A stretch of DNA of 64,000 nucleotides from Marsupella aquatica (taxonomy: Eukaryota; Plantae; Marchantiophyta): assembly GCA_973895155.1 (NCBI GenBank), contig OZ316896.1, positions 9,807,525-9,871,524 on the forward strand, given 5' to 3'. The position numbers and the translations under genes were made by a program. Positions 33,791 through 59,331 of the stretch are shown piece by piece. The first letter of the stretch is position 1, and each line of letters opens with the position of its first letter. The notes under the pieces were generated by a model. It saw nothing but the letters and a program-made list of their open reading frames with translations, ran no database searches and was not told the DNA's origin.

Positions 33791-35785
33791 ATATACGACA
33801 ATTCATTTTCTTTCAGAGATATGGAGATGCGAAAGCCTTGCTCTTGGACCAATTGGCCATAAAATTTCCAAGAGATCTTCAAGCGAGATACATCATCAGC
33901 GCAAGAAGGGCTGGGATTCTGGGAAAATTGGGAGGAACCGGAACCTTTGGACGAACTATTTGCAACGAAATTTGATCTTATTTGTCGTCTATTATTTTTC
34001 ATGAAAAAGTTTGAAGGCAGAGCATATATAAATGAGCCATAATGAAATGAATTGTTAACACCAGGTTCATCACTGTTGTCCTGACGCAAGAAGTCAGTAC
34101 GCACAGCAACTAATGCTCTGTTTCATGACTTTGACGCGTCGGATCAAAGTTCAAGGTCTCACGATCATTGAGCTTGGGGTTCTGACATGTACATATGTCA
34201 CGAAAGGTCCGGGTGGCTTCAAGTCTACAGTACTGAATTTTTCGTCGAATTTCACACTCAATGCAAACTAATCTGTACTAGTTGCCCCCTGGTGCCACAC
34301 AGCCATTTACAAGTACTTAATGCACTTTGTGATTTCAATTTTCTTTGTAAGTTTGAGGGCAGATCAAGAGAAGAATGCACATGTCAAGATTTGGATCAAC
34401 TAATGATGAAAATACTCGTGTACTGCGACTAGAATTAGAATATAAAAAACAAAACCCTGCAATGTCTACTCTCTCTCTGCCGGGCCTGAAAATTTTTGAG
34501 CTGCCTTCTTTTGACACTTCACTCTCTTGGGATCGTCGTCCTTTTCGTTTCAATCTAAACCTTATTCATACGAGCCGTTTCCAGAGAGTACAACATAGAC
34601 ACAAGAACCTTCAACTAGCTGAAATTAATGAAATTTTGGCGCTCACCTACTTCTGAATCCTCCCTGCAAATTAGTATAGAAATAGAATAGGATATAACTT
34701 ACTGCACATGACAGTCAGAGTACAATTTTAACCGCCATTTCTGATCGTAGTATGAGTGAAAAATCTTTGTTCATGATACAACGCGCTGGATCAAGAGTCG
34801 GCACATTAAGGCCCATAAATGCAATGCCATCTCGACGTGTGGAAACTGCATTGTAACGTGCCTCAACGATTCAAAAGTATGATTTAGAAGCAATTCACTT
34901 GTACTTGGCAATGCGCGGTGAGACACTGATGTCCTGACTGCCGATTGAACGTCCGACCCTGGTTGTTATATTTGTGTTCAATATAGAGGAGAGCGAACAA
35001 TCACCACAGTTATAAAACTCATGTCAGGCTGGTCGATCTCGGGGAGAAAAATCTGGATTGCTACAGCACTAATGTAATGATCTAGATGAGACTGTTGCGA
35101 TTTTGGGACGAGATCCGAGGCTTCGGCGTCGGCTTTCCGTTCAGCATCTGGTAGGTCCATTTTGCTCCAGTGACTGACTATCTCACGCTAGAACCATCAC
35201 GATGTATGCACATCGCTATGCTGTTCGTCTGTGTTCATTGCTTTGTCACACGACGCTCAATTCGATTTCCTGAATTGCACAAAGGAGACACTGTCACGTA
35301 CCCTCGCTCGAGCTCCCACTCCTGGCGGGGACAAACCAATCGATCGTGTCGTGTGGACGCACAGCACGATGTGTCTATGGTAGCAATGCGGATCCAGAAG
35401 CTAGCTCAAGAAGCTCGGTCTGCCCTTGATCGAGCTTCTCGATAACATGCTAGCCAAACACGTTCCAGCTGAATACGATAAGGTTGCCCAATCGATTTCA
35501 AACAATTTCAAGTTTTAAAGTATGGAAATTATTTAGCGTTTTGATTTGCTTGTTTGTCGAGCTGTAACACAGTCAATGAGATTCTAAGCATGTACCTGTG
35601 CGACTTCGGCAGACTTGAAGCTATATTGCCAGGCAGAATGTAATCCAGGAAGTTGTTCTCATTGAATAAGATCTTATTCGAATCTGTGCAGTTTTATATA
35701 TGGGCGTTGGCTTGTTGTCCTTACTCCTGGCATTGCAGCTCTTGATTGGTGGTTACAGACGATTTTCTAGACACCGGCTACGAAG

Positions 35786-38700
35786 ATGAGACCAGTGGTC
35801 TTAGTACTCTTTCTGGGGCTTGTGGGTCCCTTGCTGTTTTGTCCAGGAGTGTGGACTCAGCCTAGCGGGGGTGGGGGTAAATTTGCGACCAGTTTGTGTG
35901 ATGAGCTAATCAGGCCTAACGGCTACAGCTGCATTGAAAATCATGTAAGTAGCTCGGACCCTCTCATGAAATCGACCGTATAGAAGGCTCTTGATTTGTG
36001 GATCGATTACGGAGCAAAGAACTTCACGTGCAACCATGTAGACATTGCCAAAATTAGTGCTGTCCTTCAGAAACATCTTTCTTTCATTAGTACGACACTC
36101 GCACTACACCTCGCACTAGACCGTGTCATGCAATCATCATACATTTATTAGCTTGCTAAACTTGTTACTCTGCAGGCAGTGACGGACGACGGGTTTATCT
36201 TGGGCCTTCAGAACATTCCCTCTCCCCAAGGACAGACGCAGCCATCTGGTGGCCCTCCTGTACTTCTTATGCACGGACTTAGTGCCGTGAGTGTGAAGGA
36301 TTTGCTCTCTTTAACTGTAACAATTTGCCGTGGTGCAGTTGCTAGCTAGACTCGAGATTTGATTTTTCCTTCGATGGGGAATTCTTTACGATAAAGATGG
36401 TGTCCCATTGCTGCATTCCCAAAAATTTAGCACCCATATGTACTCATAGTAATTATTGCATTCTGCGTCGCAAGTTTTACTTGGAGATGGTCAGGACAAC
36501 TAAGTTGGTCCTACCCCATCGCCGTAATCAAAGGAGCTCATATCAGCGAACCGTTTTTGGTTCCTTGAATCAATGTTTATCCAGGCTGGGGACAACTTCG
36601 TCGCGAACCCACCGCAGGAATCTTTGGCCTTCGTCTTAGCTGACGCTGGCTTCGATGTCTGGATTTCAAACAACAGAGCTGTGCAGTGGAGCCATGGGCA
36701 TCAGAACCTCTCGCCATCTGACGACGTAAGTGAGAACGAAAACGTCACTCTTATGAATGCCAACTATTCATCTGATGTATGGTCGGTCTTTTCTGGACTT
36801 TTGGATTAAATTACTTCTACAATTATCGCGTTCGCTTAGTCCTTAGGTGATCGAAGAAATGAGGCAAGGAATCTTTAAATTGATGACATGAGCTGACGTA
36901 TTGCTTGGAGCAGAGGTATTGGGACTGGACTTTTGACGAACTAGCATCTTACGACTTGAAAGCCATGACCGAGTATGTCTACAACCAAAGAAACGGGAGA
37001 AAATTAAATTATATCGGCCACTCTCAGGTACAAATCTTGATTGCCAGACAGAGTACGCTCGTCAAGTATATCAGCTTATGGTCTTATAGGGCTTCAACGA
37101 ATGTCCGAAAACGTTGCCAACTTGGTGTTTAACTGACGAGAACCTTCATAAAAAAATTGATTCTTCGACTTTGCCATGCACAAACTTCCAAAAGTAAAGA
37201 CCGGACAACACAACGAAGAAGTAAGAAAGAGTTTAAATGGCATACTTAAAGTTATCAACAAGCAGGCCCCTAGAGAAGCTTTGCACTCGTCCTATAATCG
37301 CAAATAGTCGGCTTCAAACTGGAATAGCTAAGCTGGAAGCAGCTCGTTTAGTACTCCGCAATTCTTATTTCCGTGCAACAAATACTGAAAGGTGTTAATG
37401 ACTGTTTGTGGTAAATACGATCAGGGCACCTTGATGCTCTTTGCTGGTCTAACTGGAGGCAAATTCAAGACCGATATTCTGGGATATTTGAATACAGCCG
37501 TGCTGCTTTCTCCAAACGCGTATTTCTCCCACCTTACGGCCCCAATTATCAAAGTAGGACTCACGATCTACGCAGACGAGGTACTACTCTCGAAGCCCTC
37601 ACCGGAAAATTGAATCCCTCTGTCAGATTGTACAAAGCTTTCAATGATTGGTCGAAAACCATCTAGTAGAAGAGAAGCTTTCCTCTTTTTCTGCTACTTT
37701 GATCTTTAATTTTTATGCTATTAGCCCGACAATTAGTTCTCCTCGGTTTGTGAAGTCAAACACTACCCAAAATCCAAAAAACCTATTCTCGATTTTAACA
37801 TGACTAATCAAGCATAACAGTAATGTCATGGTTGTTTTGTTTGGCGTTTTAAAGATTTTGGCTGTTGTCGGCAATGGAGAATCTGATGCTAACATGTAAG
37901 TAATTTGAAATGAATAATTTTATAAGAAAATCAAAGTCGGATTTTCAATTTTTATAGATTTCAGAGATTCTGGTATCATCCTAATCATGTTCAAGTTGCT
38001 AGCATATCCTCATCGTAGTCAGATTACAAATTGCAGAAGATGCTTGTATCCGGTCTACCAATCCAATGCTAAATCATAATCGTCATTGGTTTTGCAGCTT
38101 TTTGAATATAACATGCACGAGTCCTTTGATAACGGCTCTAGCCTGCAGCGATGTCTATGACGGCATTCTAGGTAACCGTCATTGTTACTGCTTTAGCCCT
38201 CTGATAACGAGGCACACTGGCATGAGGTTGCTTAATATGTATCCTCTCTAATTTCAGTTTTCGTGATGAGTATCTGTCCCTTGGTGTGATTAGATCATCA
38301 ATTTCTTGTCTGAGACGTGGTACGGACTTTTGTAGGTCAAAACAACTATGTCAATAAATCCCGTCTTGGGTTCTACAGCCAATACTACCCACAAGCAACT
38401 TCATCATTCAACGTCAACCATGTCGGCCAAAGTGAGTCGCTTGCTATTGTAAAAGATGGCTTCTGGATACACTAGAAAGTATTTGGTTTAATATAGTTGT
38501 CGCAACTGCTGCAAGTGATCCCATTTTGCATGCTTGTTATCAGGTTTTGAGAGCTAGCCAACTGCGAATCCCTACCATCGTCTCTGTAACTAATTGAAGG
38601 GAAACGAGGGACAGCGGGGATTGATAAAACCTGAGAAAGAGTCTCTTCTCTTCTCTTCTCTTCTCTTCTCTTCTCTTCTCTTCTCTTCTCTTCTCTTCTC

Positions 38701-39102
38701 TTCTCTTCTCTTCTCTTCTCTTCTCTTCTCTGTATTCTCTGTATTCTGAAGAACTAGTGAATCCAATTGATGATCACAATTCTAATTTCTGGAACTATGT
38801 GATGTATTGTAGGTTTCAGGACGCAGACCTTCCAATTCTACTCCAGAAGTCCCCTCGACGACCCTCCCAAATATGATTTGACAGATTTTCCTACGAGCCT
38901 TCCTCTTCAACTGTGGACTGGTGGATTTGACGGATTGGCTGACCCAACTGATGTGAATGCACTCTTGGCAAAGCTGCCTAGCTCCAATAGAGAAGTCAAC
39001 ACTCTACCAGATTATGGCCATGTAGATTTCATCTATGGTGTTAGAGCTTACATAGACGTTTACCCCGGCATCATCACTTTCCTCCGAAGTCATACACCGT
39101 AG
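35786..39102 (+). CDS. Triacylglycerol/acid lipase, copy 3, 9 exons, 393 aa
   Basis: Exons 35786-35944, 36176-36286, 36585-36725, 36914-37027, 37425-37580, 37855-37895, 38098-38171, 38336-38431, 38813-39102; triad GHSQG, DGLAD, YGHVDF intact; exon 6 uses an AAG acceptor. Confidence 0.93.
38642..38731. repeat. (TTCTC)n microsatellite in the last intron of lipase copy 3
   Basis: Pure pentamer run of about 90 bp. Confidence 0.97.
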
Positions 39103-39355
39103 TTGGCAGGATATTGTACACAGCATACTAGACACTGGAAACTCTCTTAAGACTGTCAGTGATTCTGCCAAATAATTTGAAGTTTCACCAGAAAGATACA
39201 ATCTGTTGAAGAGTACAACTTTGATGTGCACTTATTTCAAGAATAGTTGCAAACATTCGAGGTTCCAAAGTAGTTAGGACTCAACACCACCAGTGAAGAG
39301 AAGTGTTTACTTGACAACCAGTCAAAGCTTTTCAGAAACAAGCAGTCCTAAGTTT

Positions 39356-39785
39356 ATGGATAGCTCGGTTACTTGTGATTCTGAGTTTAGGAGAGTCGTC
39401 ATTTTCTTGATGATTAATGTTCTGGAATAATGATCATCAAGAAAATGATGGATAGCTCGGTTACTTGTGATTCTGAGTTTAGGAGAGTCGTCATTTTCTT
39501 GATGATGAATGTTCTGGAATAATGATCATCAAGAAAATGATGACTCTCCTAAACTCTCCCAAAGAGACTTATGAAATCATCGTTTAGGAGAGTCAATATC
39601 TTCTTGAGAATTAGAGATATGGAATAGAGTTATGAAATCATCGTTTAGGAGAGTCAACATTTTCTCGATGATTGGTGAACATTCTAGAATAGAGAGTTAT
39701 GAAATCATCGTTTAGGAGAGTCATCATTTGCTTGATGACTAGTGTTCGGGAATAGAGAGCTATGAAATCATCAAGAAAATGAATG
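39356..39785. repeat. Complex tandem and inverted repeat cluster
   Basis: 92-bp unit x2; 32-bp-stem hairpin at 39475-39556; several TTATGAAATCATCGTTTAGGAGAGTCA units. Confidence 0.9.
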
Positions 39786-39876
39786 ATTACCTGGAGTTCA
39801 ATGCCCCGGTTTGACCTTGCCCGTCAAACTGGGCGTTTTCGAGCGGCAAATCGGCAACCCGGCACCCGGGTTCGGA

Positions 39877-40410
39877 AGCAGTCCGGGAAAGGAAACCTTC
39901 GGCCGCAGTTCGGGTTCGGGAGGCCGGGTTCGGGAGGAGGTGCGGAGGGTTTGGGTGGGGGTTCGGGTGGGGGTCCGGGTGACTAATCGGGTCCGGGTCC
40001 GGGGCAAAGGCGCTTGGTTGGGGCTCGGGGTGGGGTCCGGGTGGGGTTCGGGTCCGCTCGGTGGGGGTTCGGGGTGGGGTCCGGGTGCGGCTCGGGTCCG
40101 AGAGGCCGAGTTTGGGAGGAGATGCCGGGGGTTCGGGTGGGGTTTCGGGTGGGGGTCCGGGTGGGGTTCGGGTCCGGGTCCGGGGGGTTCGGGTTCGGGA
40201 GGTGCGGGGGGTTTGGGTGGGGGTCCTTGCCCGGGGCGGAGGCGCTTGGTGGGGGTTCGGGTTGGGGTCCGGGTGGGGTTCGGGTTGGGTCCGGGAGGCC
40301 GGGGATCGGGGTGGGGTCCGGGTGGGGTTCGGGTGGGGGTCCGGTTCGGGGTTCGGGTCCGGGTCCGGGGGGCACTTCGGGGGTTCGGAGGTTCGGGGTT
40401 CGGGAGGGGA
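39877..40410 (+). repeat. G-rich telomere-like degenerate hexamer array (GGGTTC/GGGTCC/GGGGTT)
   Basis: Directly visible, with strong G-strand bias. Confidence 0.9.
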
Positions 40411-40535
40411 GTCTCAGATCAGGGTTTCGCAATTTAGGGTTGGAGGGTGAGGCCGGCCGGGAAAGGGTCGGGAGGGCGCTCGGGAGAGGATAAAAGGAGG
40501 AGATCCCTCCTCCCCCTCCTCATTTTTGGTTTTGC

Positions 40536-41231: not shown

Positions 41232-42516
41232 GGCTGGTTGTTGAAACCTTATTGGAAGGATTTTATTTAAATCCCGGTAAGATTTTGTTCCTCCCTCACA
41301 TATTCCTTTTGTGAAGGGAAAACATGGTCATCGGTAATTTTAGTTTAGAGTATAGACAAGTGTTGGAGACGATCACAAAACATGTGAATGAGGGATATGA
41401 GCCAAATCTTGTTGCTCTGGACGCATTGAAGAACGCTCGAAACACTCTCAAACATGCTAGGAATTCTAGCAAAGTGGCCAGGAAATGAAAACGAAAGGGG
41501 GCAAACGAAGAGGCAAAACAGGTTCGACACAATGTGGTAGTGTCGATATGGAAAAAGATACTTTATCGCTACACTTAACCGAAACAGTATGGGGTGGACG
41601 GGTTTGAGAGGGAGTTTACCAGACACGGACAGAAAGGATACAAGAACTTTCTTGGTGAGATAACCCGTTGTATGCGGGAAAGCGTACAGAAGGAGGACAA
41701 TTTCACATGAGAGCAAATGAAGTCATTTGAAGATGAAACTGAGAAACCGGGAGGATTTCTGGAAAATTTGGCTCTCAACTTGGAGAAGCATATTTGGGAT
41801 AATTTGGTAGCCAAAGTGGAGGAGGGTGACACTACATTGCTTGGAAACCCCGGGATGTACACACACAAGAGAGAATTGCTAGTGAAGTGGAGTAAAGAGT
41901 TGGCAATGGCGAAATCTGATAGCAATGTCAAATATGCTAACGAGATTGTGCACTTTGGGGATTTCAGCATCAAAAGTGCTCGAAAAGGAACACGTCCATC
42001 GCGTGTAGTTCCAGAGGTCAGGAGTATCCATTTTCTTAAACCTGAGCAGATGCACAACACACGTCGCATTGGGAAAGGAATCCAAGGAGAGGTATACACT
42101 TGTCGTATATTAGATTGTCCTCTCATTCCCGTCAACGTGACCTTAGTCGCAAAACGGTTCAAGGATGGAGACAAGCATAAGAGACAAACTGACGCATTAC
42201 AAGAAGTGCTTATGGGAGGACTGAATCATAAGGGAATCATTGGAGCTCTTGCGTTGACTATTGAGGATCCGCCAAAACTTATTTACGATCACTACAATGG
42301 AGGTGATTTGGGTAGCTTTATTGATAAGTGCGGCATATCGTCAAAGAGCAAAGGTAAAACACAGATCACGACGGACCTTGATTTCAAGTTCATTTCGGAG
42401 AAGAAACTCTTGTTGGAGAACCATCTGGGAATCGCCTTGGCTTTGCTGGAGACACTGCAATACTTGCATGAGCATGATCGATTTCATTGTGATCTTCACT
42501 TTTGGAAACATCTTTC
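41232..42516 (+). pseudogene. Protein kinase pseudogene, 5' part (long N-terminal extension, subdomains I-VIb)
   Basis: IGKGIQGEVY Gly-loop, VAKRFK, DALQEV, HCDLH(F)GNIF with a +1 frameshift at about 42500. The frame continues upstream of 41717 through in-frame TAA/TAG/TGA stops. Cut by the gypsy insertion at 42517. Confidence 0.85.
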
Positions 42517-45500
42517 TGTCGCGCCGCTAACCTGGGCCTTAAATCCAGTTTAGTGCCATGGTGCGACCTCGACCACCAGTAAGGGTGAGGGTTCGGGCAA
42601 GGAGGTGTGCAGTGACCTCAATTAGCCCTAAGTCGGGCTAAGTCGATATACTTACCGGTATAACACTTGAATAATTCGTACTAGTCATAGGTATATTTGT
42701 TTTCCACTGCTGGAATATTCCCTCACTTAGTGACTCGGACTAACTCCCGGCTTGGGGCCTTTCAAGCCATCGACACGACAGGACCTTGTGACATACAATG
42801 AGGGGCAATCCCTACCATTAGTCCACACCCGGTACGTCCCTTAAAATGGCGCCTTTACCCAGACAAAGCATACACACAACACCAGTTACTTGCAGAAACA
42901 TTAGGGGGAAAAGACTACATTTACTCAGCGAAGCATCAGTTTACATGGTTGACTCGACTTCAAAGGGGGTTAGCAGGCCCAACGGCAGTCGATGCCCAGT
43001 CTCTACGAGGCCCTGCCTCACACTTGCCCAACAAGCTCGACTCTGGCTCTCACTCCTTGGTGCACTCTGACCCTGCTCAGGCCGGGACTCTCCGTGCCTC
43101 ACCTTCCCATTGCTGAGATAACTAAGCCTTCTCCCATTCCTTAGCGGAAGGGGAAGCCTAAATACTACAATCGCGGAGGAGAGCCGGAGGATACTGCCTT
43201 CTGGGATACTACCTACTGACTAACTACCTACTGACTACTGGCCGCGCCGTACTGACTGGATGACCGTCGACGACAAGGTGCTGACCGGGATGGCACCGGC
43301 CAATCCTACTGACAAATTCTAGTCCGTTGATGGACTCTATCCTACGTTGGCTGATCCTAACTCATCTGGCCCTAATTCTTCTTACTGCCGCTAATCGGCG
43401 CCTAATGACAGTCATTCTGTCGTTATGCCTAACCAAAAGATGCCGCTGACTTAACTTCCTCGCGCGGCGCCTGCTTCCACCCTTCGCTAACTACCCCTTA
43501 CGTGTGTGCAGTGGTTGGACTAGGGCTGGTCCCCTTGTCGGGACGAGACCTCGAGCCGCCTTGATCAGAGGTGGGCCCAGGTTTTCCCCGCTGGAGGATG
43601 AGCAGGGTAATGCGGTCCTGCAAAGCCTTGTTGTCCCGTACTGCTTCCTCCGCCTCGTTTGCAGCTTCATCGGCCTCGGTCTGGAGCCGCGCTACCTCCA
43701 AGTTGAGCTGGTCGATGGCGTCACGATGGACCTGGTCCTGCGCTAGCAATTTATCTCGTTCGGCGGAGAGACTAGCCACCTGCTGTGTTGCCTGCAGGAA
43801 TTGTTTGTTGAGGTCGGTCAGGCTAGTAACCCGAGCCGAAGATTCCGAGCGTAATTGAAGCATGGTGTTATCCAGCTTCTTGAGTTCGACCTGCGCTCCG
43901 CTTAACTCCTGGTTTAGTCCGTCCCTCTGTTCGACGGTGCGGACTAACTCCTCGTGTCGGGTTGTTGCCTCCTCCTCGAGGTGCTCTACCAACATCTGGA
44001 GGCGCCCGATCTCATTCCCCTTCGCCATGAGTTCTTCTTCTAGGCGGCTTACGATCCGTGGTTGGTGCTCTAACATGAAGAAGGCTGGTTGAAAGTACGC
44101 CGAGACTTGTTGTCCGATGTACGTCGCCAGCTCCCCAGACATAGTCTGGCTAAACTTCTGGACCAGGTCGTAGGCCATGGTCCCCGGGGCTACTTGGTAG
44201 TCCTCCATCCTCTCGGGTACCGGTGGTTCCTCGGCAGGGGCAATGAGCTCCTCCGTAGTCAGCACTGGAGAGGGGAAGGTCTCTTCAGGTGGTGGAGGGA
44301 TTGGGGGTGGTTGTACTGCGGGTAGCGGAGGCTCGACGGAAGGGGGCGGTGGAATTTCCACAGGGGGCGGTGGCGGAGTATTAGTCGGGGCTTCCGGCTC
44401 GGGGTTTGCCCGAGGGACGGTAGTCCGTGTAGTCGGGGTTGCCTCCTCTGGGGCGGGGGTGACATTACCCGGGGCTGAGGTGGCCATATTCTTTCCTCTG
44501 GCCTCCCGCCATGCCTTGTATCAGGCGAGGATAATGCCGATATGACTTCCCAAGTAAGTCTTCCCCCCAATAGCCATACCACCCTGAGCCTGCTTCAGCT
44601 CCCCCGAGAATCTTCGGTAGAAGAATTGGGCCCAGTTTCATCGTTTGTACTGTTCCACCTGCACGATCGTGTAGAGGGAAATCTCGGATCGTGGCTCAAT
44701 CATGTGTAGGGTAGTCCGTATGAAGTTAAGCCGCTCCATACAGGTTAAGTTGGTGCACGCCCCCTGCTTGTATCCGTTGTCCGTCTTACCCTCGGGTTTG
44801 AAGTGCCGCGGCGTATACTCCTTATCCCGAATTCGGATTTCCACCGGCACCGGCCCGGTTGGTAGGCAGAAAATTTGCGTTAACCGATGCTCCGTGAGTG
44901 ATAAGGCCTGCCCCGAAACCTTGGAGGGCGACGCGTCAGTGTCGAAATTGGAGATGAACTCACAAATCTCCTTCGGCCCGGTGGCGCACGGCCTCCATAG
45001 CAAGTGGGCGAACCGCTCCAACTGATGCTCCTTGAGATAGTCCGCATGTTCGAGTTTCTTGATCGCGATCCAGACTACCTTGGGGATGCGGATTACCTAT
45101 AATAAGTTGGACTTCGGGTTATCCGGGGGCCGTCGGGTATGGTTGGTCGGGGGGTTTGCTGGGGCAGGTGCAGGCGCGGCGTCGTTCCATGTTGATTCGG
45201 GGGCCGTCGTAGTCCTTGGCCGCTTACGAGGACGCTATTTGAGTTCCAGACTAGCTCGCTCGGAACCCGAAGAACACTCTGTGTTGATTACTGGACGGAC
45301 TTGGGATTGGTTCGGCGGTACTCCGGTGGTCATCGGTTGAGGCACTAGGGTAGCCATATCCCAGTTGAAGGCGTTGGACCTTTCCCCAAGGAACGTGAGA
45401 TTACGCGCCGCTTCCCGTTGTCTGCTGATGTCTTCCTAGCGGCGCTTTTCGGTTGCGATCTGCTGGTCTAGGTACCCCGGAATCTTGTCGAACTCCGCTT

Positions 45501-46357
45501 GAGTAAGCCGCTGGTTGCCCTTCAGCTTAAGAACTTCGCTGGAACCTCAAGAATCGCCTCTGCTACCGATCTAAGCCCTTCCTCGCTGAGATATAGTTCG
45601 GTGATGTAGTCTCGCAGCTTGTTGTAGCTAGAATCCCTGGTGATGGCTGTCCTTTCGCAATTAACCAGTGCTACCTTGGTTACCAGCTTCACGTACCTTC
45701 GTTCGTAAGCGGCTTTCTCGGGGCAAGAGTACCAGTAAGTCTCGGAGAACTTAGCACCTACCTCGCCAAACAAGGTCCAAAATCCCAAGGCTGTGAGGGT
45801 CATATTAACCTCGTAGTCCGGTTTGTTGAGTCCGCGTTCCCACCCGGCTGGTCCTCTGTCTCGTGGAGGCCTCGCTCGTCTTGACTAAATCTTGCCACAT
45901 TCCGCTCTTCTCCCTCGATAATCTCCTTGTAAAGGTCGACTCGATTCGATCAGCAGGGCCAGTGGGTGGCAACGTCCGCAAATTCAAAGAAAGGTAGACA
46001 TGAGCAAATGGCCCGCAGCACCATCGGCTCCTCTCTTATGAAGGTGCCAGGATGAGCCCGAGCGTGAGAAGGCCAGGCCGTTTTGGTCATTGATAGCGAG
46101 CTGAAGTCGGCGCCTCGGTCCAAGCGTGATTCTTCTAACTGATTTTTACTCCGCTGCCGCCACCGTACCTCGGTCGCGCGTAATAATCCCCTTCCTTAAC
46201 TCGTAATGATTCGATCATCTTAACCTACTCCTAATCTAATCATAATGGCAACAGACGGCTATACATGCTATTCTACACTATGGCTACGGTCCTAATGACC
46301 GTATAAGTCCTAATCTATGACCTGGGTTTGGTCAAGTGACACGTTACCCGTGTCACA
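42517..46357 (-). repeat. 3' LTR of the gypsy element (3841 bp)
   Basis: Starts (minus strand) TGTGACACG right after the purine-rich AGTAGGGAGCTA; ends GCGCGACA; collinear with 53133-56438. Confidence 0.9.
43498..45803 (-). pseudogene. LTR-embedded accessory gene (about 770 codons): Athila ORF2/plant-transposon-protein-like domain, Pro-rich linker, coiled coil
   Basis: ORFs 45803-45522, 45021-44638 and 44487-43498 join into one frame across one 1-nt deletion and several TAG/TGA stops. Motifs PKEICEFISNF, NWAQFFYRRF..YLGSHI.IIL. Confidence 0.75.
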
Positions 46358-49300
46358 TAGCTCCCTACTTAAGTGTGAAGCGTCCTCGCGAACATCATTA
46401 CGCTCGTTGTCCTGGTGGAAGTACCTCTTCACACGATCGTAACTAACTCGATTGGGAAAGAGGTCGCCGACGTACGTTGATAGCTGTAAGGATCCGTTCG
46501 GGTACATCTGCTGGACAACGAAAGGTCCTAGCCAGCGTGTGTGTAACTTTCCTGGAAAGTACATGTACCTACTATCGTACAGAAGGACAAGATCTCCCGC
46601 GGTGATGTCCACCTGGCGCAGTCCCTTGTCGTGCTGTTTCTTCGTTGCTTCTTGCTTGGCAGTTACGCGTCGCGATGCCCACAATCTCTGTTCTTCTAGA
46701 CTGTCGATCTTATATGCTCGATTGGATGAACTAGCGGCCTCCGATAGTCTGTGGCGGATGTGCACCCGCGGGGTCTCGACCTCGAACTCCACGGGTACTA
46801 GTGCATGTTGTCCGAATACCAAGAAATACAGACTATGGTTTGTAGTAGTCTTAAATGCCAAGTTGTACGAATAGACCGCCGCGAAAAGCTTGTCGTCCCA
46901 GTCTATTTTGTGGGCTGCCACGGTTTTGTTGAGAATTTTCCCTACAATGCCATTAGCCCGCTCGGCTAGTCCGTTACATTTGGGATGATAAGGAGTAGTC
47001 TTCCTGTGCTTGACGAGGTAACGGTCAGTCAGTTTTTCCACCATTTCGTTCAAAAATTGAGTCCCGCGGTCGCTGACTAATTCCAAGGGAGGTCCAAAGC
47101 GGGTGAAGATCTGTTCGTACAGGAACTTGGCGGTGGTGGCCGCGTTATCTTTGACCATTGCCCGGGCCTCGACCCATTTAGTCGAGTAGTCGATAGCCAG
47201 AAGAATGTACCGGCACCGCCGACCTCGGGTTACCGGAGTGAAAGGTCCTATATAATCGATGCCCCATTTCTCAAATGGGGCAAGGGGAAAGATCGGGGTA
47301 AGAGGATGATTACCCGACCTGCGAGGTTTGCCGGCACGCTGACACAAGTCGCAACCTCGGATAAAATGGGCTACGTCATGATGGAGCGTAGGCCACCAAT
47401 AACCTGTGTCCAAGATTTTGTGAGCCGTGGTGACCGAGGCGAAGTGTCCTCCTGCCTCTTCCTCGTGCATAGCTCGCATGACAATGATCGTCTCGTTATA
47501 ATCTAGGCATCGGCGGATCTTCCCATCGACGCCTTCCTTATGCAGATGTCCGCGGATCATCATGTATGGTGCGGCCTTGCGCAGAAAGACCGACGCGGCC
47601 TCTTGGTTTATGTTACTTGGAATGCGGGCCGTTAAGAGGAAGGTGATTAGGTCCCCGTACCATGTTAGTTGGTCCGTTTCTACGCGGAATAACTCCTCAT
47701 CCGGGAATGCATCATCGACAGGTGCGTCGTCCGATTCCCCTTCAATCCTCGAGAAGAAGTCCGCATTTACGTGAGCTTTCCCTGGTCGCACCCTGACTTC
47801 ATAGTTAAATTCTTGGAGCAGCAGGACCCAACGGGCTATTCTCCCCGTTAAGTCTGCTTTGTTTACCATGTACTTCAGGCTGTCATGATCAGTATGGAAT
47901 ACCACCTTATACCCCAATAGATAATGGCAAAACTTTTTGCACGAGTAGATGATCCCCAAGGCCTCCCGATCTGTGGGCGAATAGTTTTTCTCTGCGGCAA
48001 ACAGTTGTCGGCTCGCAAAGTAAATGGGGTGGTCACATTTTTCGTCGTCCAGTTGGCTTAGGACTGAGCCGATGCAGAACCCAGACACGTCGACATATAC
48101 ATGGAACTCCTTGTTCCAATCGGGGGTAGTCAGGATTGGAGCCATAGTTAGCTGTTTTTTTAGTTCGTCAAAGGCTGATTTTCGATGGGGAGTCATTTCT
48201 ATGACCGCGTCTTGCTTCATCAATTCTGTGAGGGGTAGGGCTATCTTAGCAAAATCCTGAATGAATCGTCGGTAGTACCCCACGCAGCCTAAGAAGGATC
48301 GCACCGCCTTCTGGTCCGCTGGGTAAGGGACATTCATCCATGCGGCTACTTTCTCTTGGTCCACCTCGATCCCCCGTTTGGACACTCGGTGTCCTAGTAG
48401 CACTCCTTCCGTTACCCCGAAGAAGCATTTTCCCGGGTGTAATTTCAACCCTACCTGTCGGCATCGCTCCAAAGTCCGCCTCAGGTGTTCCGGGTGTTGG
48501 GCGATTGTTCCGAAGATGGCAAAATCATCTATGAACACCTCCAAAAATTCTCGTAAGAAGTCATGAAAAATATTCATAATGATTCGCTGGAACATAGCCG
48601 GAGCATTTCATAAGCCAAAGGGCATCCGCCGGAACGCGTAGGTTCCCCACTCAGTTATGAACGTGGTTTTGAGCTGGTCTGACAGTCTGATCCAAATCTG
48701 GTTATAACCCGAATATCCATCCAGGAACGTGTACACCTCATTCCGGGCTACCATGTCAAGGACCATATCCGTGTAAGGAAGCGGGTAATGGTCCTTCCGA
48801 GTAGCGTCGTTGAGCTTCCGATAGTCTTGGCATATTCAAATTTTGGGTTTACCATCAGGCCCTACCTTCTTAGGAACCACCACAATGGGGGATACCCATT
48901 CACTAGATAAGACGGGGTAGATTATGTCTGCCACGATCAGTTGATCTAACTCCTCCTTTACCAAGATAGAATGTCTTGGGTTTAGTCTTTGTTGTCGTTC
49001 TCGGACGGCATGAGCACCCAAGTTTAGATCAATGACGTGTTCGCCGTAGGCTGGTGAAATCCCGGTTAAGTCTCGGTGACTCCATGCGAAGACGTCCTCA
49101 TATTCCGATAGGAGTTCTTGGATGGCCTTTTCCTCTGGCGCTCATAGGCCATAACCGACGTTGAATGTTCTCTCCCTCCTTGTGGTGTAATTGCCATAGT
49201 GCTCCTTGCGGATTACATCCACATGGTCTCTCGTGGTCCGGTCAAGATGAGCCTCCAATTCCTCTAGTCTGGTGCCATTGTAGGCCATGGGTTCCCAGAC

Positions 49301-52300
49301 TCTCGGCCGCTCCCTTGGGAGCTCCTTGGGTTCCTCTATTACGGACGGAATCTCGGGGCTCCAGGTAACCTTTTTCTTTGTGGGAGGAGTGGCGGTCTGA
49401 GTAGCGTTTTCTTCGGGTAAACCGGGCAAGGCAAGCCAGCCAACTGCCTTCTTAGGGCTCACCGTTCCGGGGAATGCTCCGCCCGTTGCCGCATCATCTC
49501 CATGTGGCCTCTCGGGTGTTGCGATTTGGGCCGCTGGCTTGGGTTGGTTCAGAAAATGGGTTTCTCGGACAGCACTTACCCCGAAGACTTCCTCTTCATC
49601 CAGGCGAGAGATTAACTCCACCATATTCACCTCTTCTTCTGAGATGTCCTCCTCCGAGTCATATTTGTCGGGTCCCTGGGGCGTTTCGCCCTGGTAGTCT
49701 TCTTCCTTCCATGATACCGTCGTAGTCGGGTTACCGAATCATAATTCCTTCCTTCCCCAGTCAGTCACGACTCGGGCACCGTATAACCAGGGTCTGCCCA
49801 GCAGTACTGGATAAGAAGAGGGTCGGACTGGTCGCATCACTAGGTAATTTAGGAAAAACTCGAGGCCTCCAATCCCCGTGGATATCTTGGTTAACGTCCC
49901 TAGTGGCATGATCCTGGCGCCGTTTGCTAACCAAATGGCACGCGCCGTGGGTTGATAAGACGTATATCCCAACCTTACGGAAGTGTCTTCCGTCATGATG
50001 TTTACACCGGACCCGCCGTCTACCGGTACAAATCAAACAGTACAACCCGCTATCTTGATAGAGACTTCCGGCGCTCCTAAGTCCTGGTAAATCATCATGC
50101 AGTCGGCTAAGGTGCTTACCCGAGGTAGCCGTCGCCTCCTCTTTCCTATCAGCATCTCCTTGAGTTGTTGCCGATACTTCGGGTTATCCTGTAATAGTTG
50201 TCCGACAGTGGCCATAGCTGCACAGTTCTGAACATCCTTTTTGATGTCGTATTGGTTAGACGGTGGGGTCGCAAATTTTAATGCTTCTGCTCCCTTGACT
50301 TCAGCTTGCAAGGCAATCTCCGCTTCCTCGGCTTCTTCTGTTGCCTTTGCATCGGCAATATCCTTCTTAATGGCTTTTTCGTGCTCTTGGGCCTCGTAGG
50401 CTTCCAATTGCTTTTTGACCAGTTCCTCTACTCATGGGTAAAATAGCTTCGGGTTATCCCGCTGGTAGTCTTCTAGCTCGTCGGGTTCCATTGGAACATT
50501 CTTATCCGGGACCGCCTCTTTCTGCTGGGCATCCTTCCGAACTCGTTTTTTGTACTTGTCCTTCTTGCGGGATGACCGAGTAGAAACGCGGTAGCACTTG
50601 TCGTCCGCGTGTGTTCCTGTTTGCTCGATTGCTTCTATGAGGTCGATCCACTCGGTGGAGTCGTCCTGCCATTCCATTGTTACCATTTGTACTACTGCAT
50701 CCGTAATTGGTGAGGCCGCAGGTTGAGCAGCTCTAACGGTACCGGCCTTCGCGGCTAGCACCAAGGAGCAATGTGACGTGGAGTGTGCTTCGGTTCGACA
50801 GACCTGGCACAATGGAAGCGCTCTCCCATCCCCCTGCTTCCTTTGCTCCGTGCACTCTCGGGCAAAGTGACCAGGTTTCTCGCAATTATAGCAAACCGGG
50901 GTCCGCCAAACTCCGGGTTTAGGTGGGATACTTGGATTGCTGACCATCTGGGGGCCACGCTCATTCACCGGGTATGGATAAGGGGTATGGAACCCTGGAT
51001 TGTGGCCGCTTAGAGTGCGAGCTCCCGTCATACTCATCTGGAACACCGCCTCACCTGGATCCTCGAAGAAGTACTCCATCGTGCATGCCTCTAGCTCGGA
51101 CTGTCCGGGCTCCAACTCCATCTGGTGCACGCGAGTGTTCCATCTTGGACATTCTTGCACCACATGTCCCGACTGATAACACTTGGAGCACCAAGCATGC
51201 GCTCGGATTTCCGGTGGTTTCTTCTTGTCCGGAGGTTTTTCCGCCAAGTGCACCGACAGTGCCTTCAGCCAGTCTGTGATTTCGTTCAGCTTTTCTACCT
51301 CAGCAGCCTTTGGGTCCGTGGTGACGACTTTGGCTCGCGGTTTATGTTTACCCGTATCTGACCATGATCCCTTCTTTCTTCGGTGGTTTTGAGACTCTGA
51401 CTCGGTCTCGCTGGAGGATGAGCTAGTTGACATCGGGCTACTGGACAGGGAATCACTAGACTCTGAATCAGAGTCTGACGAAGAGCTGGTCCGGCCCTTC
51501 TTCTTATGTCGTCGTTTCTTCTTCCTTTTTTTCTCGTCGTATTCAGAGTCGGAGTCGCTGAAGGTATGATACCTCCTGCTCTTCTTATGCTTGGTCCTCC
51601 TATTAAGCTGAGAGGCGTAGTGCGATTCCTTGAAGGATTCGGCACTATCAATTGCTTGTTGTAGAGTGGTGGTCTTCTTTTCTAGCACTGAGAACGCCAT
51701 CCTCTGGGGTAGCGCGTTGACGAACCATTTCCTCAGTAGAGAGTCATCTGGCTTAGGCCGAATCTTGGCGGCAACCTTCTGGAACCGCTGCAGAAATTTG
51801 CGAAGTGAGTCATGCTTACCCATTTGCATTCATCCAATTTTTGACAGGGCCCGAGATTCGATCCCGCGGGCCGAAATTCTTGCAAGAACGCCGTTTGGAA
51901 CTGGCCCTATGTACAACCCAGGGGTTGTAAGTTATACCACGGGCACGCTTCTCCTCGTAGCACGCCTGGAAGAATGGTTAGCTTAATGGCTTCCTCACCA
52001 TTCGCCTTGGCCGTGGCCTCGAACTCAGCTATCCATTCATCAGGGTCGTCTGTGGGTCGTCCCTTAAAGGGTCGATAGTGAAACCGGGATCGTTGAGACA
52101 CGTTCTGAGCCGCAGGGGGCCGCAATGCACCTGGTACCTGCGGGGCTGGTGGAACCGGTGGAGTTCCTCCCGCCATTGGTGCTTGGGTACCCATCACAAC
52201 ACGCGATCCTGCTTGGGAAGCCGAGCTCCTCGCTTCGCCGGACGTGGTATTCTCTTCCAACCTTGATGCTCCGTTCAGTTGTTGTAAATACGCAGAACGT

Positions 52301-52317
52301 GACCGGGTAAGGGGCAT
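46310..52317 (-). pseudogene. Gypsy gag-pol (disrupted)
   Basis: Gag FKGRPTDDPDEWI; three CCHC knuckles (CSKC..GH..EC, CYNC..GH..EC, CQVC..AH..HC); protease VDGGSGVN; RT WVSPIVVVPKK, FLDGYSGYNQI, VFIDDF; RNase H; integrase HHCC, WGIDYIGP, SDRG, NGLAE; WLGPF. Several stops and frameshifts. Confidence 0.95.
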
Positions 52318-52396
52318 GCCCCTTCCTTCACATCGAGTACAAAATCAAAAGTTACTAGCTCACTACACGGCTCCACTCGTAAGGCAAAATGAGTGC

Positions 52397-52414
52397 CCCC
52401 TCCATCTAGCGCCA
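52397..52414 (-). promoter_or_regulatory. Primer-binding site, tRNA-Asn type (TGGCGCTAGATGGAGGGG)
   Basis: Complementary, with one mismatch, to the plant tRNA-Asn(GTT) 3' end as recalled (..CCCCTCCTTCTAGCGCCA); about 80 nt upstream of the gag ATG. Confidence 0.7.
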
Positions 52415-52421
52415 AAAAAAC

Positions 52422-53132
52422 TGGTCGCCGTCCCTGGGCCCTCACTCTTACTATATAAAGTGAACCCCCCTGAGAACAGACACCCCCCATGTACCCCTTC
52501 TTAATATTTTTGTTCACAAAAAAAATCCCCTTGTTAATGTAAAAATATTAACTTTTCCTATTAAATTTTATCCTTTTGTAAATTATAATATAGTTTTTCA
52601 AGGAATTGAAAACATCCTTGAATTTTTAAAATTGCAAATATCATACTGAAATAGATAAGACTTTATTTTGCATAGGGGACTTGTATGTTACGCCTTTGTT
52701 TAGGGTACATATTTTATATAGTTAAACAAAATTAGTACCAGAGAATTATAGTTCTTCCTGTAGTATACAAACAAGCATGGCTACACTATCCTCTCAGTGT
52801 TCCTAAAGCCCACGAAACCAAACTTGCCTTATGACGACAAATAATTAAATATCTGATTTACTATATGAACATGTGCGCAAGTAAAGTGATGACATGTGTG
52901 CCAACCATATAGTGACATGTGTACTTGGCATTTTGGGTACCCTTGCATAAGATTAATCTGACATGTATTTGATAAGAGCCTTATTACTAATATTGTGCTG
53001 AATATATATACAGGGATGTTGCCTACTTTAAAAACTATTATAAAAATTAGTTTGCATTACATTAAAAACACCCTTGCGATGTTCGCACGTCCTCCCTGTA
53101 TTAGTAACACTTAGGGCCCAGGGGTCGCCGTA
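52422..53132. mobile_element. AT-rich 0.7-kb segment between the 5' LTR and the PBS (second-family LTR, or MITE with 8-bp TSD)
   Basis: Inverted ends CCCTGGGCCCT (52432) / AGGGCCCAGGG (53123) flanked by direct GTCGCCGT; absent from the 3' LTR. Confidence 0.6.
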
Positions 53133-56100
53133 TGTCGCGCCGCTAACCTGGGCCTTAAATCCAGTTTAGTGCCATGGTGCGACCTCGACCACTAGTAAGG
53201 GTGAGGGTTCGAGCAAGGAGGTGTGCAATGACCTCAATTAGCCCTAAGTCGGGCTAAGTCGATATACTTACCGGTATAACACCTGAATAATTCGTACTAG
53301 TCATAGGTATATTTGTTTTCCACCGCTAGAATATTCCCTCAGTTAGTGACTCAGACTAACTCCCGGCTTGGGGCCTTTCAAGCCATCGACACGACAGGAC
53401 CTTGTGACATACAATGAGGGGCAATCCCTATCATTAGTCCGCACCCGGTACGTCCCTTAAAATGGCGCCTTTACCCAGACAAAGCATACACACAACACCA
53501 GTTACTTGCAGAAACATTAGGGGGAAAAGACTACATTTACTCAGCGAAGCATCAGTTTACATGGTTGACTCGACTTCAAAGGGGGTCAGCAGGCCCAACG
53601 GCAGTCGATGCCCAGTCTCTACGAGACCCTGCCTCGCACTTGCCCAGCAAGCTCGACTCTAGCTCTCACTCCTTGGTGCACTCTGACCCTGCTCAGGCCG
53701 GGACTCTCCGTGCCTCACCTTCCCTTTGCTGAGATAACTAAGCCTTCTCCCCTTCCTTAGCGGAAGGGGACGCCTAAATACTACAATCACGGAGGAGAGC
53801 TGGAGGATACTGCCTTCCGGGATACTACCTACTGACTAACTACCTACTGACTACTGGCCGCGCCGTACTGACTGGTTGACCGTCGACGACAAGGTGCTGA
53901 CCGGGATGGCAGCGACCAATCCTATTGACAAATTCTAGTTCGTTGATGGACTCTATCCTACGTTGGCTGATCCTAACTCATCCGGCCCTAATTCTTCTTA
54001 CTGCCGCTAATCGGTGCCTAATGATAGTCATTCTGTCGTTACGCCTAACCAAAAGATGCCGCTGCCTTAACTTCCTCGCGCGGCGCCTGCTTCCACTCTT
54101 CGCTAACTACCCCTTACGTGTGTGCAGTGGTTGGACCAGGGCTGGTTCCCTTGTCGGGACGAGACCTTGAGCCGCCTTGATCAAAGGTGGGCCCAGGTTT
54201 TCCCCGCTGGAGGATGAGCAGGGTAATGCGGTCCTGCAAAGCCTTGTTGTCCCGTACTGCTTCCTGTGCCTCGTTTGCAGCTTCATCGGCCTCGGTCTGG
54301 AGCCGCGCTACCTCCAAGTTGAGCTGGTCGATGGCGTCGCGATGGACCTGGTCCTGCGCTAGCAATTTATCTCGTTCAGCGGAGAGACTAGCCACCTGCT
54401 GTGCTGCCTGCAGGAATTGTTTGTTGAAGTCGGTCAGGCTGGTAACCCGAGCCAAAGATTCTGAGCGTAATTGAAGCACAGTGTTATCCAGCTTCTTGAG
54501 TTCGACCTGCGCTCCGCTTAACTCCTGGTTTAGTCCGTCCCTCTGTTCGACGGTGTGGACTAACTCCTCGCGTCGGGTTGTTGCCTCCTCCTCGAGGTGC
54601 TCTACCAACATCTGGAGGCGCCCGATCTCATTCCCCTTCGCCATGAGTTCTTCTTCTAGGCGACTTACGATCCGTGGTTGGTGCTCTAACATGAAGAAGG
54701 CTGGTTGAAAGTACGCCGAGACTTATTATCCGATGTACGTCGCCAGCTCCCCAGACATAGTCTGGCTAAACTTCTGGACCAGGTCGTAGGCCATGGTCCC
54801 CGGGGCTACTTGGTAGTCCTCCATCCTCTCGGGTACCGGTGGTTCCTCGGCAGGGGCAATGAGCTCCTCCGTAGTCAGCACTGGAGAGGGGAAGGTCTCT
54901 TCAGGTGGTGGAGGGATTGGGGGTGGTTGTACTGCGGGTAGCGGAGGCTCGACGGAAGGGGGCGGTGGAATTTCCACAGGGGGCGGTGGCGGAGTATTAG
55001 TCGGGGCTTCCGGCTCGGGGTTTGCCCGAGGGACGGTAGTCCGCGTAGTCGGGGTTGCCTCCTCTGGGGCGGGGATGACATTACCCGGGGCTGAGGTGGC
55101 CATATTCTTTCCTCTGGCCTCCCGCCGTGCCTTGTACCAGGCGAGGATAATGGCGATATGACTTCCCAAGTAAGTCTTCCCCCCAATAGCCATACCACCC
55201 TGAGCCCGCTTCAGCTCCCCCGAGAATCTTTGGTAGAAGAATTGGGCCCAGTTTCATCGTTTGTACTGTTCCACCTGCACGATCGTGTAGAGGGAAATCT
55301 CGGATCATGGCTCAATCATGTGTAGGGTAGTCCGTATGAAGTTAAGCCGCTCCATACAGGTTAAGTTGGTGCACGCCCCCTGCTTGTATCCGTTGTCCGT
55401 CTTACCCTCGGGTTTGAAGTGCCGCGGCGTATACTCCTTATCCCGAATTCGGATTTCCACCGGCACCGGCCCGGTTGGTAGGCAGAAAATTTGCGTTAAC
55501 CGATGCTCCGTGAGTGATAAGGCCTGCCCCGAAACCTTGGTGGTCGACGCGTCAATATCGAAATTGGAGATGAACTCAAAAATCTCCTTCGGTGATGTCC
55601 TTCAGCTTAAAGAACTTCGCTGGAACCTCAAGAATCGCCTCTGCTACCGATCTAAGCCCTTCCTCGCTGAGATATAGTTCGGTGATGTAGTCTCGCAGCT
55701 TGTTGTAGCTAGAATCCCTGGTGATGGCTGTCCTTTCGCAATTAACCAGTGCTACCTTGGTTACCAGCTTCGCGTACCTTCGTTCGTAAGCGGCTTTCTC
55801 GGGGCAAGAGTACCAGTAAGTCTCGGAGAACTTAGCACCTACCTCGCCAAACAAGGTCCAAAATCCCAAGGCTGTGAGGGTCATACTAACCTTGTAGTCC
55901 GGTTCGTTGAGTCCGCGTTCCCACCCGGCTGGTCCTCTGTCTCGTGGAGGCCTCGCTCGTCTTGACTAAATCTTGCCACATTCCGCTCTTCTCCCTCGAT
56001 AATCTCCTTGTAAAGGTCGACTCGATTCGATCAACAGGGCCAATGGGTGGCAACGTCCGCAAATTCAAAGAAAGGTAGACATGAGCAAATGGCCCGCAGC

Positions 56101-56438
56101 ACCATCGGCTCCTCTCTTATGAAGGTGCCAGGATGAGCCCGAGCGTGAGAAGGCCAGGCCGTTTTGGTCATTGATAGCGAGCTGAAGTCGGCGCCTCGGT
56201 CCAAGCGTGATTCTTCTAACTGATTTTTACTCCGCTGCCACCACCGTACCTCAGTCGCGCGTAATAATCCCCTTCCTTAACTCGTAATGATTCGATCATC
56301 TTAACCTACTCCTAATCTAATCATAATGGCAATAGACGGCTATACGTGCTATTCTACACTATGGCTACGGTCCTAATGACCATATAAGTCCTAATCTACG
56401 ACCTGGGTTTGGTCAAGTGACACGTTACCCGTGTCACA
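53133..56438 (-). repeat. 5' LTR of the gypsy element (3306 bp, net internal deletion of about 535 bp)
   Basis: Same termini as the 3' LTR; about 32 substitutions counted by eye in the first ~980 bp (about 3%). Confidence 0.9.
54114..55884 (-). pseudogene. Second copy of the LTR-embedded accessory gene (internally deleted)
   Basis: ORFs 55884-55576, 55193-54726 and 54692-54114 are near-identical to those in the 3' LTR. Confidence 0.75.
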
Positions 56439-56443
56439 CTTTC

Positions 56444-56907
56444 TTCATTTCAATCACGAGCACGATGTGGCTATTAAGGTGTATGTTGGTTTATGTGATT
56501 TTGGCTTGTCTAAGCATAAATCACAGTGCAAATTACCAGCTAATCGGATGTGGCTCACAACAACAGAAAAAGCAGCAGCATACCAAAAACAATTTCCACA
56601 GTTGGCTCCGGAGCTTGTTCAACCTACCCCTGTCGAGTTTAGCGAAAGTACCAATATATATGCTTTGGGGAATATTTTTGAGACATTGTTGACAGAGAAT
56701 TGGGATGGAATGTCTAAGGGTTCACGGTTTTTGGGGAGGGGTTGGAGTGCACAAGTGCATGGCCCCAAATTGGATATCATAATTCGTGAAATGATGGCCA
56801 CGGATGCGAAGAAAAGAATGGATTGTGCTTTTTGGAGTTTGAAGATAGTTCGAACGTTTCCAGATTGCAGATTGCATTTGCACAACAGTCCACATCTTAG
56901 AGATTAG
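56444..56907 (+). pseudogene. Protein kinase pseudogene, 3' part (subdomains VII-XI)
   Basis: LCDFGLS, LAPE, STNIYALG, IIREMM..DAKKR. Removing the gypsy element and one TSD copy rejoins ..GNIF|LHFNHEHD... Confidence 0.88.
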
Positions 56908-57079: not shown

Positions 57080-59331
57080 ATGGTACGATGGGAATTGTCT
57101 TCTGATGATGAAGACAAAGAGTTCACGACACAACATCCTACCATGCAAGATGGTCAAGGACCCTATTGTGACGATGAAGCTTTTCGTAATACTGTGTTGG
57201 ATAATCTTACAACCATTGGCATTCACTATGAGGCTAAACCCAAGGTTGATGGAACACCGGCTCAGGGGTCTCACTATATGGGGACCTCCCTATCGCCTGC
57301 GACGTTTTTAGGCCTCGGACCCCCTAAAATGCAAGAAGAAAAATATTATTTTTTAACCCCTATAAAGTTAGAATATTCTTGGAATATTCTAAAAATTGGA
57401 TTAAAAAGACCCTAATGTTCTTATAAGTCTCAAAATTGAATTTAAAAGACCCTATTGTTCTTCTACAAAAATTCTTAAGTCTTCCCTTAGAACCAATAAA
57501 ATGACCCTATCCTTCGTCGCATGTGATATGCCATTTTTGTGGAAGTGAAACCCCCGAGAACACCGGCGCCAAACACAAGAAGATGGGAAGATGAGGGTAC
57601 GAAGGATGAATGGAGTATATTAACGCCCAATATAAATCCTCCCCATGACGAATGGCCTATCAATGCAAAGGAATTGGAGATGTTGATGCCAAAGAAAGAC
57701 TTTTGGCCATTAGCACAAAAAGTTTTTCACGATCCGGATGTTTGGGCAACAAGATCATGGGCGCAAGAAAATTCACCATGTCCAAAGTAACACATGCAGG
57801 TGTTAAATCGCATTGGCAACAACGATATCGAGAGTTTGCTCCACACAAAGCCCAAACAAAAATGAGTTCCGTTTACCCTCCTTTTATCCAATGTCTGATT
57901 GCTGAATTTATTCTGAAGTGGAAGGTGGATTACCGTTGGGAAAATAGTGCTGGCAAGCTGACTCATCAGGTGCATCCATCAGTGGTTGCGATTGCAACGA
58001 ACAGGAATACAACTATTGCAAAGGACCCTTCAATGGAGACTTCCAACAAGGGATCCAAAAGAAAGCTAGATGAGACTGGGGAGGGATATGCGCATCAGAA
58101 GGGGAAAGCGACTGTACTTCCTCGAGTCTCCATGCCTGATCGTGCAGCACCACCAACCAATGTGGAGTCCACGCACACCAAAAACCCAATCCTTGTAGGT
58201 GTTGGGAGTAGAACTCCACATGCAAAGAACAACAATGTTACTGATGCTAACAAGGATAAGTTCAACCTGCACAACATATGCAAGAGCTTGGGGGCAGATG
58301 TTGCTGAGGTGATTGAGACAAATCTCTGCACGAAGTATGTAGTGGAGCTATGTGAATGTGGCAACATCGAAAAGTTTAAGTCACAATTGCAACAAGCTGA
58401 TTTAAAGATGAAATCACTTGAGAAGAACCAGAACGAGCCGACGACCAATTCTGAAGTGATGTTGTACAAGTGTCAATTGTTTGACAAGATGGAAGAAATC
58501 AATAAGTTGAAAAAACAACTTGCTGAAAAAGAACATCAATGCAATGAACTGGCACGACTTGAGGAGAAGGACAAGATCATTAATGATCTTAAAAGTGAAC
58601 TTGCAACACAAGCAGTCATCATATCAAATCTTCACGAAGAGGTGCAAGAATTTAACAATGGTGCTTTGGGGATGGGGTCAAACAAAGGGGAAGGAGAATT
58701 GTCGTCGCCAAATTTTGTTAACATGCAAATCATAGATCCTACAGGGCACAACAACCTTTTTCCAGATGTGGAGGTTGACGCGGAAGGTATTGAGAGGTTT
58801 TTTGATAAGTGGAAAAAGGATGAAACTATGGCAGCATTTGTTCGTGAAAAGGATGACAAGTGTACTTGGTGCCTATATCCTTGGGGCCCTGAATCTGTTT
58901 CCATGTTGGGAACCTGCGGTCATATATGGCATCATGCTTGCTTGTCTAAATGGTTGAAGAAAAGCCGAAAATGTTGGTGTCGCACACCATTTCATGAACG
59001 CGAGTATGAGCAACGAGGATTGTTGAAGCAAATGCCATCAATGGAGACTCAACAAAACACTGAAGAAATGACTGAAGACACTATACTGGCGATGCAAATA
59101 GATGAAACTCCCATTGAACATTTCACAATCAATGAATATAATTTGTCAGATGGGGAATTTGACAGGTTGTTATTCAGTGGTCGACTCGACGAGTGGAAAC
59201 AATATGCGACAGCCAACCAGCCATCAATAGATGAGCAAAATTTGCAACGATCCATTCGGCGCCATCGACGACGTCAACAACAAGCAGAGGTGAAAACAGA
59301 AGCCGTCGACAACAACAACAAAAGGAACTGA
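57080..59331 (+). pseudogene. Coiled-coil plus RING-H2 protein gene, interrupted by a MITE and one frameshift (about 57780)
   Basis: Removing the MITE restores KPKVDGTP|APNTRRWEDE. Central coiled coil; RING-H2 CTWC-x14-CGH-x2-H-x2-C-x10-CWC at 58861-58980; no introns evident. Confidence 0.75.
57261..57558 (+). mobile_element. MITE, copy C of the 8-bp-TSD family
   Basis: TIRs CTCAGGGGTCTCACT / AGTGAAACCCCCGAG; perfect TSD AACACCGG (57253-57260, 57559-57566); 3' ~55 bp homologous to copy A. Confidence 0.88.

Follow-up and report, generated by a model that had tools for sequence, protein, structure and literature searches.

The DNA analysed here, called the window below, is a stretch of 64,000 nt from the liverwort Marsupella aquatica (OZ316896.1:9,807,525-9,871,524; all coordinates below are window positions). 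Its minus strand carries a long terminal repeat (LTR) retrotransposon of 13.9 kb, with an interior of 6.8 kb, which belongs to a plant non-chromovirus Gypsy family, has decayed and holds a copy of a large accessory gene in each LTR. Comparison of the window with itself gave two direct repeats, 42517-46357 and 53133-56438, which on the minus strand are the 3' and the 5' LTR respectively; both start with TG and end with CA. The initial annotation had described repeats of 3.8 and 3.3 kb bounded by a target site duplication (TSD), a 3' repeat right behind a polypurine-like tract and a pol frame ending in that repeat at 46310. All three descriptions were confirmed (3,841 and 3,306 bp with CTTTC on both flanks; purine tract 46370-46361, 3 nt before the LTR; pol stop codon 46312-46310, 48 bp within the 3' LTR). 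The two LTRs differ at 80 of 3,305 aligned columns (67 transitions and 13 transversions; Kimura two-parameter distance 0.025), by one 1-bp indel and by the loss of 536 bp from the 5' LTR. The element comprises the following features:

42512..42516, no strand: left copy of the TSD, CTTTC (flank comparison)
42517..46357, minus strand: 3' LTR, 3,841 bp, TG..CA (self-comparison; 46357 is a family boundary, and the 42517 end abuts the primer-binding site (PBS) region in other copies)
43498..45803, minus strand: accessory gene, 3' LTR copy, about 768 codons, broken (N-terminal domain, linker with a basic motif resembling a nuclear localisation signal, core, Pro-rich linker, coiled coil)
43585..44088, minus strand: predicted coiled coil of the accessory protein, about 165 aa (heptad pattern; coiled-coil Pfam matches only sub-threshold)
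44494..45108, minus strand: core domain of the accessory protein, about 205 aa, similar to PF20167/Athila ORF1, basic (pI 9.4) and predicted to fold like VANC21 (homolog and fold comparison)
46310..52194, minus strand: gag-pol with CCHC knuckles, protease (PR)-like motif, reverse transcriptase (RT), RNase H (RH) as well as integrase (INT) (open reading frames (ORFs) and Pfam)
46361..46370, minus strand: polypurine tract (PPT), 3 nt ahead of the 3' LTR
52397..52414, minus strand: PBS-like motif, 18 nt from the LTR end with the following insert discounted
52432..53123, no strand: insert resembling a miniature inverted-repeat transposable element (MITE), 692 bp, AT-rich, carrying 11-bp terminal inverted repeats, flanked by an 8-bp TSD and separating the 5' LTR from the PBS region
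53133..56438, minus strand: 5' LTR, 3,306 bp, with the 536-bp deletion near 55594 (self-comparison)
54114..55884, minus strand: accessory gene, 5' LTR copy, about 590 codons, with the deletion and four stops (ORF comparison)
56439..56443, no strand: right copy of the TSD, CTTTC (flank comparison)

A sense frame of about 770 codons had been proposed for each repeat. This length was recovered in the 3' copy when it was read through its breaks; neither copy is open, and the 5' copy reaches about 590 codons. The window element thus has no intact ORF: the 3' copy has a frameshift near 45530 and five stops (45438, 45237, 45099, 44640 and 44523), and the 5' copy has the deletion and four stops. One stop is common to both copies, while the remaining breaks are private or fall within the deleted part. 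The frame nevertheless retains a coding signal: its 676 codons contain five stops, whereas the best of six frames in shuffled sequence has 17 on average (0 of 500 shuffles as low). Its GC content by codon position (0.61/0.46/0.66) is pol-like, and codon periodicity reached significance in the core and the coiled coil; the N-terminal piece and the linkers, taken alone, did not reach it. Decay was of the same order in gag-pol (seven stops and one frameshift in about 1,950 codons). The 536-bp deletion was considered as a spliced intron and rejected, as it has no GT start and is replaced by short filler from inside the deleted part.

Five public sequencing runs contain the element, four of them, under two organism labels, at 37-42% of sampled words; contigs from these four (X1-X4) were compared with the element. 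At the LTR start, contigs split into mutually unlike flanks exactly at 46357 (X1, 6; X3, 13; X4, 10), the flank agreement beyond this base being 0.44-0.51; among the contigs listed for X2, none diverged at 46357. Summed depth in ten LTR bins was 7.8-11.3 times that in sixteen interior bins, although depth is not a copy number. It was raised across the whole LTR, the gene bins being no shallower than the LTR 3' end. This excess fits many solo LTRs and also relatives with other interiors. Eight LTR indels were listed: six of 1 nt lie outside the gene, and inside it there were only a 3-nt indel and the frameshift of the window copy itself (P 0.004; from a list covering 12 of 20 indel entries). 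The 45-nt block 46353-46397, containing the pol end, the PPT and the LTR start, is very deep and occurs also in further families that differ in LTR start and pol end; in this lineage the PPT therefore normally stands at the pol end. A relic second PPT past the accessory gene was rejected, as no second tract followed by TG was found downstream of it.

The accessory gene is thus very probably in the LTR family-wide. That it resides there in the lineage had already been proposed, and the unrelated flanks at 46357, the depth of the whole LTR and the avoidance of the gene by frame-breaking indels bear this out. A one-off rearrangement of a short-LTR element with an internal extra ORF would accord with the normally internal position of Athila-type extra ORFs and with one pol relative, L018, in which a homologous gene lies about 460 bp past the integrase. 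This explanation is very improbable and already largely refuted, because other copies share the start base while their flanks are unrelated, the depth is high from one end of the LTR to the other, indels spare the frame, the PPT stands at the pol end and no second PPT and TG lie beyond the gene; moreover, the TSD exactly flanks the long repeats. Judging from published Athila layouts, the accessory gene may have shifted into the LTR from an internal site.

The element has the TG..CA LTRs, TSD, PPT and PR-RT-RH-INT order of Ty3/Gypsy. Pfam matches in the interior were a zinc knuckle, RT, one RNase H and integrase (H2C2 and rve); neither a chromodomain nor a second RNase H (aRH) had a Pfam match in gag-pol, and the RH-INT gap is about 110 aa. 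In a quick tree with 21 unlabelled pol relatives and no labelled reference lineages (22 of 31 sequences retained at >60% coverage), the window pol stood on its own branch, with a best identity of 44%. Among 30 pol relatives, a domain homologous to the accessory core was present only in L018, which has no visible LTR, and both LTRs were seen in none. Long upstream/downstream repeats in five relatives (L013, L016 and L021-23) held no ORF of at least 200 aa. In L018, positions 3145-5448 can be read without a stop from the integrase through a linker of about 150 codons into the homologous accessory domain, possibly a pol-accessory fusion or chance. In four other relatives (L008, L009, L011 and L014) the polyprotein extends about 430 aa beyond the integrase and has, by eye, a second aspartic-protease-like motif.

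At the other end of the interior, the PBS-like motif, which resembles the tRNA-Asn type, sits about 18-21 nt from the LTR end in the family. The MITE-like insert, presumably hAT-type from the length of its TSD, had escaped the initial annotation. Other copies lack it, and in read contigs their LTR end runs straight into about 52420. Within 52431-52397, the spacer has a 14-nt complement with four G:U pairs at 53923-53910 in the 5' LTR (P 0.02) and none in the 3' LTR (P 0.97); self-priming or an unusually distant PBS is possible from this pairing.

Homologs of the accessory protein were found by an index-free search. Word-index searches with the core region gave no homolog (344 and 50 candidates), and a metagenome scan with a stop-free piece gave 107 pattern matches, none confirmed. 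Three homologs matched Transposase_32 (PF20167) at 24.8 (P0026), 34.6 (P0049) and 19.7 bits (P0050), all below the 45-bit gathering score; the window protein itself had no match to this family. The suggested link to Athila-type extra ORFs was borne out through these PF20167-like homologs. The N-terminal domain is conserved and has no Pfam match, and DUF1985 had none in the query or 38 related proteins. A PDB profile search returned only generic coiled coils, and single-sequence fold prediction was uninformative (predicted local distance difference test score, pLDDT, 37). The predicted fold resembles that of VANC21, the sole solved match and a sequence-specific DNA-binding anti-silencer. We are fairly confident that the accessory protein is homologous to the VANC/MAIN/Athila-ORF1 fold. 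A sense ORF past pol with a coiled coil is also where plant 'env-like' ORFs are found (PMC7264820), which would suit an env-like fusion or movement protein. We give this interpretation almost no weight, and an env function was rejected: neither the query nor six homologs had a transmembrane segment, no viral fold matched at E<=0.001, and the PDB profile matches were generic.

Pattern scans of the 3' LTR located three further features, all past the stop codon of the accessory gene:

42858..42946, minus strand: ATGTAA (42946) and a U-rich tract (42917-42858), each the only one in the LTR; putative poly(A) region, R/U5
43158..43164, minus strand: the sole TATA-pattern match in the 3' LTR, with the putative U3/R boundary shortly downstream
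43163..43387, minus strand: same-strand cluster of nine YAGTA words (seven CAGTA in 225 bp), a candidate enhancer/target array (shuffle test)

On one side of the CAGTA cluster is the gene, on the other the TATA match at 43164. When the best cluster of any 5-mer was considered, none of 500 shuffles of the 3' LTR equalled it, and P was 0.01 for the 5' LTR. At the level of motifs, this arrangement hints at the order U3 (gene, motif array, promoter), short R and U5, and the gene is probably in U3. The initial annotation had placed a TATA-like CATAAGAG upstream of the gene, at about 46040; this fits none of the TATA patterns scanned. Alternatively, transcription could start near the LTR 5' end and the gene could lie in a very long R (or in U5), as a leader ORF like Ogre ORF1 or on an LTR-contained mRNA made by each LTR. 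About 550 bp of non-coding LTR, including CATAAGAG, precede the gene, some promoter must drive it, and LTR-contained spliced transcripts are described as predominant in maize (PMC13192763). However, the upstream part has no TATA pattern and several short upstream ATGs (46024-45901), the sole TATA match is downstream, as are the motif cluster and the U-rich tract, and gag-pol would have to follow a 768-codon ORF. We consider this placement improbable.

With the gene in U3, the genomic RNA would start past it in the 5' LTR and have the order R-U5-PBS-gag-pol-PPT-gene-R. The gene would be read once, at the 3' end of this RNA, in the same RNA order as the Athila 3' extra ORF. As the PPT is upstream of the gene, plus-strand synthesis would give both LTRs a copy of the gene within U3. 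In the same way, the U3 genes sag of mouse mammary tumour virus (MMTV) and bel of foamy viruses are copied to both LTRs by reverse transcription. Every LTR, any solo LTR included, would then hold the gene and the motif array with the poly(A) region behind. The protein would oligomerise by its coiled coil, and its targets would be arrays of short motifs on one strand; the CAGTA cluster beside the putative promoter is a candidate for such an array. By binding the DNA of its own LTR, the protein could sustain transcription against host silencing. VANC21 is described as removing methylation and as binding motifs that stand densely, in one orientation, in non-coding parts of the transposon that encodes it (PMC5735166). 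By analogy, an anti-silencing or transactivating role is plausible, at slightly less than even probability. Taken as a whole, the reading of a non-chromovirus Gypsy element with a conserved LTR gene, likely in U3, for a VANC21-like DNA-binding protein that keeps its own LTR transcribed seems to us somewhat better than even. Its main rival keeps the selected, LTR-resident gene and has the protein do structural or nuclear work instead, as a chromatin tether, in the targeting of integration or as a chaperone of a ribonucleoprotein or particle. MAIN, described as a silencing factor, has the same fold (PMC13547354; PMC5418596), no function has been demonstrated for Athila-type ORFs (PMC7264820), and the long coiled coil with an unknown N-terminal domain would suit such a job. 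Against it are the basic core, the same-strand motif cluster in the non-coding part of the LTR and the only solved match, a sequence-specific DNA-binding anti-silencer. We regard a structural role as possible, if on balance doubtful.

The element works like Athila with a 3' accessory ORF, yet it fails the Athila layout and lacks Phygy, Selgy and Tat features. It shares with Athila the 5-bp TSD, the single RNase H, an RNA on which gag-pol precedes an accessory ORF in sense orientation (as described in PMC6317226 and PMC11728184) and, in its homologs, a domain like PF20167 of the Athila 3' extra ORF (PF03078/PF20167). By contrast, the Athila ORF is internal, between pol and the PPT/3' LTR, whereas the ORF here lies past the PPT, within both LTRs and duplicated, pol runs into the LTR, and there is an extra conserved N-terminal domain. 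Athila has a PBS for tRNA-Asp/Asn/Ala by the 5' LTR; the PBS-like motif here, which resembles an Asn type, is 18 nt from the LTR end. Ogre LTRs are likewise long, 1.9-6.5 kb (PMC6431247), but its extra ORFs are internal and it has the aRH of Tat/Ogre/Retand, for which no match was found here. Phygy and Selgy are also non-chromoviruses of non-seed plants with a polyprotein filling the internal region, as PMC6317226 describes them, but have a 4-bp TSD, 4.4-10 kb and no extra ORF, against a 5-bp TSD, 13.9 kb and an extra ORF here. VANC21 belongs to VANDAL Mutator elements and VANC is described as dicot-specific (PMC13547354), whereas the protein here is encoded in a Gypsy LTR and its named homologs are from a liverwort only. 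Compared with VANC21/MAIN, identity is 10%, neither DUF1985 nor PMD has a Pfam match, the VANC21 9-mer is absent, and the role here is predicted. Retroviral LTR genes (MMTV sag, human immunodeficiency virus nef, foamy virus bel) are likewise protein genes in U3 copied into both LTRs; here, the carrier is a plant Gypsy element without env, and the gene is much larger (2.3 kb), lies wholly inside the LTR and encodes an unrelated protein. Extra ORFs of plant elements are placed only in the internal region (PMC7264820), and no LTR-resident ORF in plants appears in the excerpts of PMC6431247, PMC5408684 and PMC11963269. Exact-phrase searches of the open-access literature for one gave nothing relevant, which is limited evidence.

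Elsewhere in the window, the element splits a protein-kinase-like plus-strand ORF (41711-42553 and 56395-56907; Pfam PK_Tyr_Ser-Thr, E 1e-9); contig depth over its left half exceeds that of many single contigs. It is followed by a 560-codon coiled-coil and RING ORF (57649-59331, plus strand), and a mobile element may carry both the kinase and the RING. At 39356-40520, upstream of the kinase ORF, are short, degenerate tandem repeats that are GC-skewed and partly palindromic. Three repeats of about 77% identity (14477-19145, 25345-30341 and 34471-39312) contain ORF pieces that we take to be from intron-bearing triacylglycerol lipase genes, and 21388-23948 (plus strand) is a frameshifted ORF, presumably of a hAT-like transposase, with no Pfam match.

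In PMC13192763 the LTRs of plant elements are treated as non-coding. With a 2.3-kb gene in U3 throughout a family, a solo LTR takes on a different meaning, since loss of the interior by recombination would leave the gene. The fold match supplies a testable answer to the long-standing question of what Athila-type accessory ORFs do, and suggests VANC-like counter-silencing beyond dicot Mutator elements. In the broadest version, which we hold to be rather unlikely, a non-seed-plant lineage put a VANC-type anti-silencing gene and its targets in the LTR, solo LTRs stay trans-acting units, and the Athila 'env-like' ORFs, VANC and MAIN form one pre-dicot DNA-binding superfamily. If this were true, solo LTRs, normally dead ends of elimination, would persist as self-contained anti-silencing units keeping the family active in trans.
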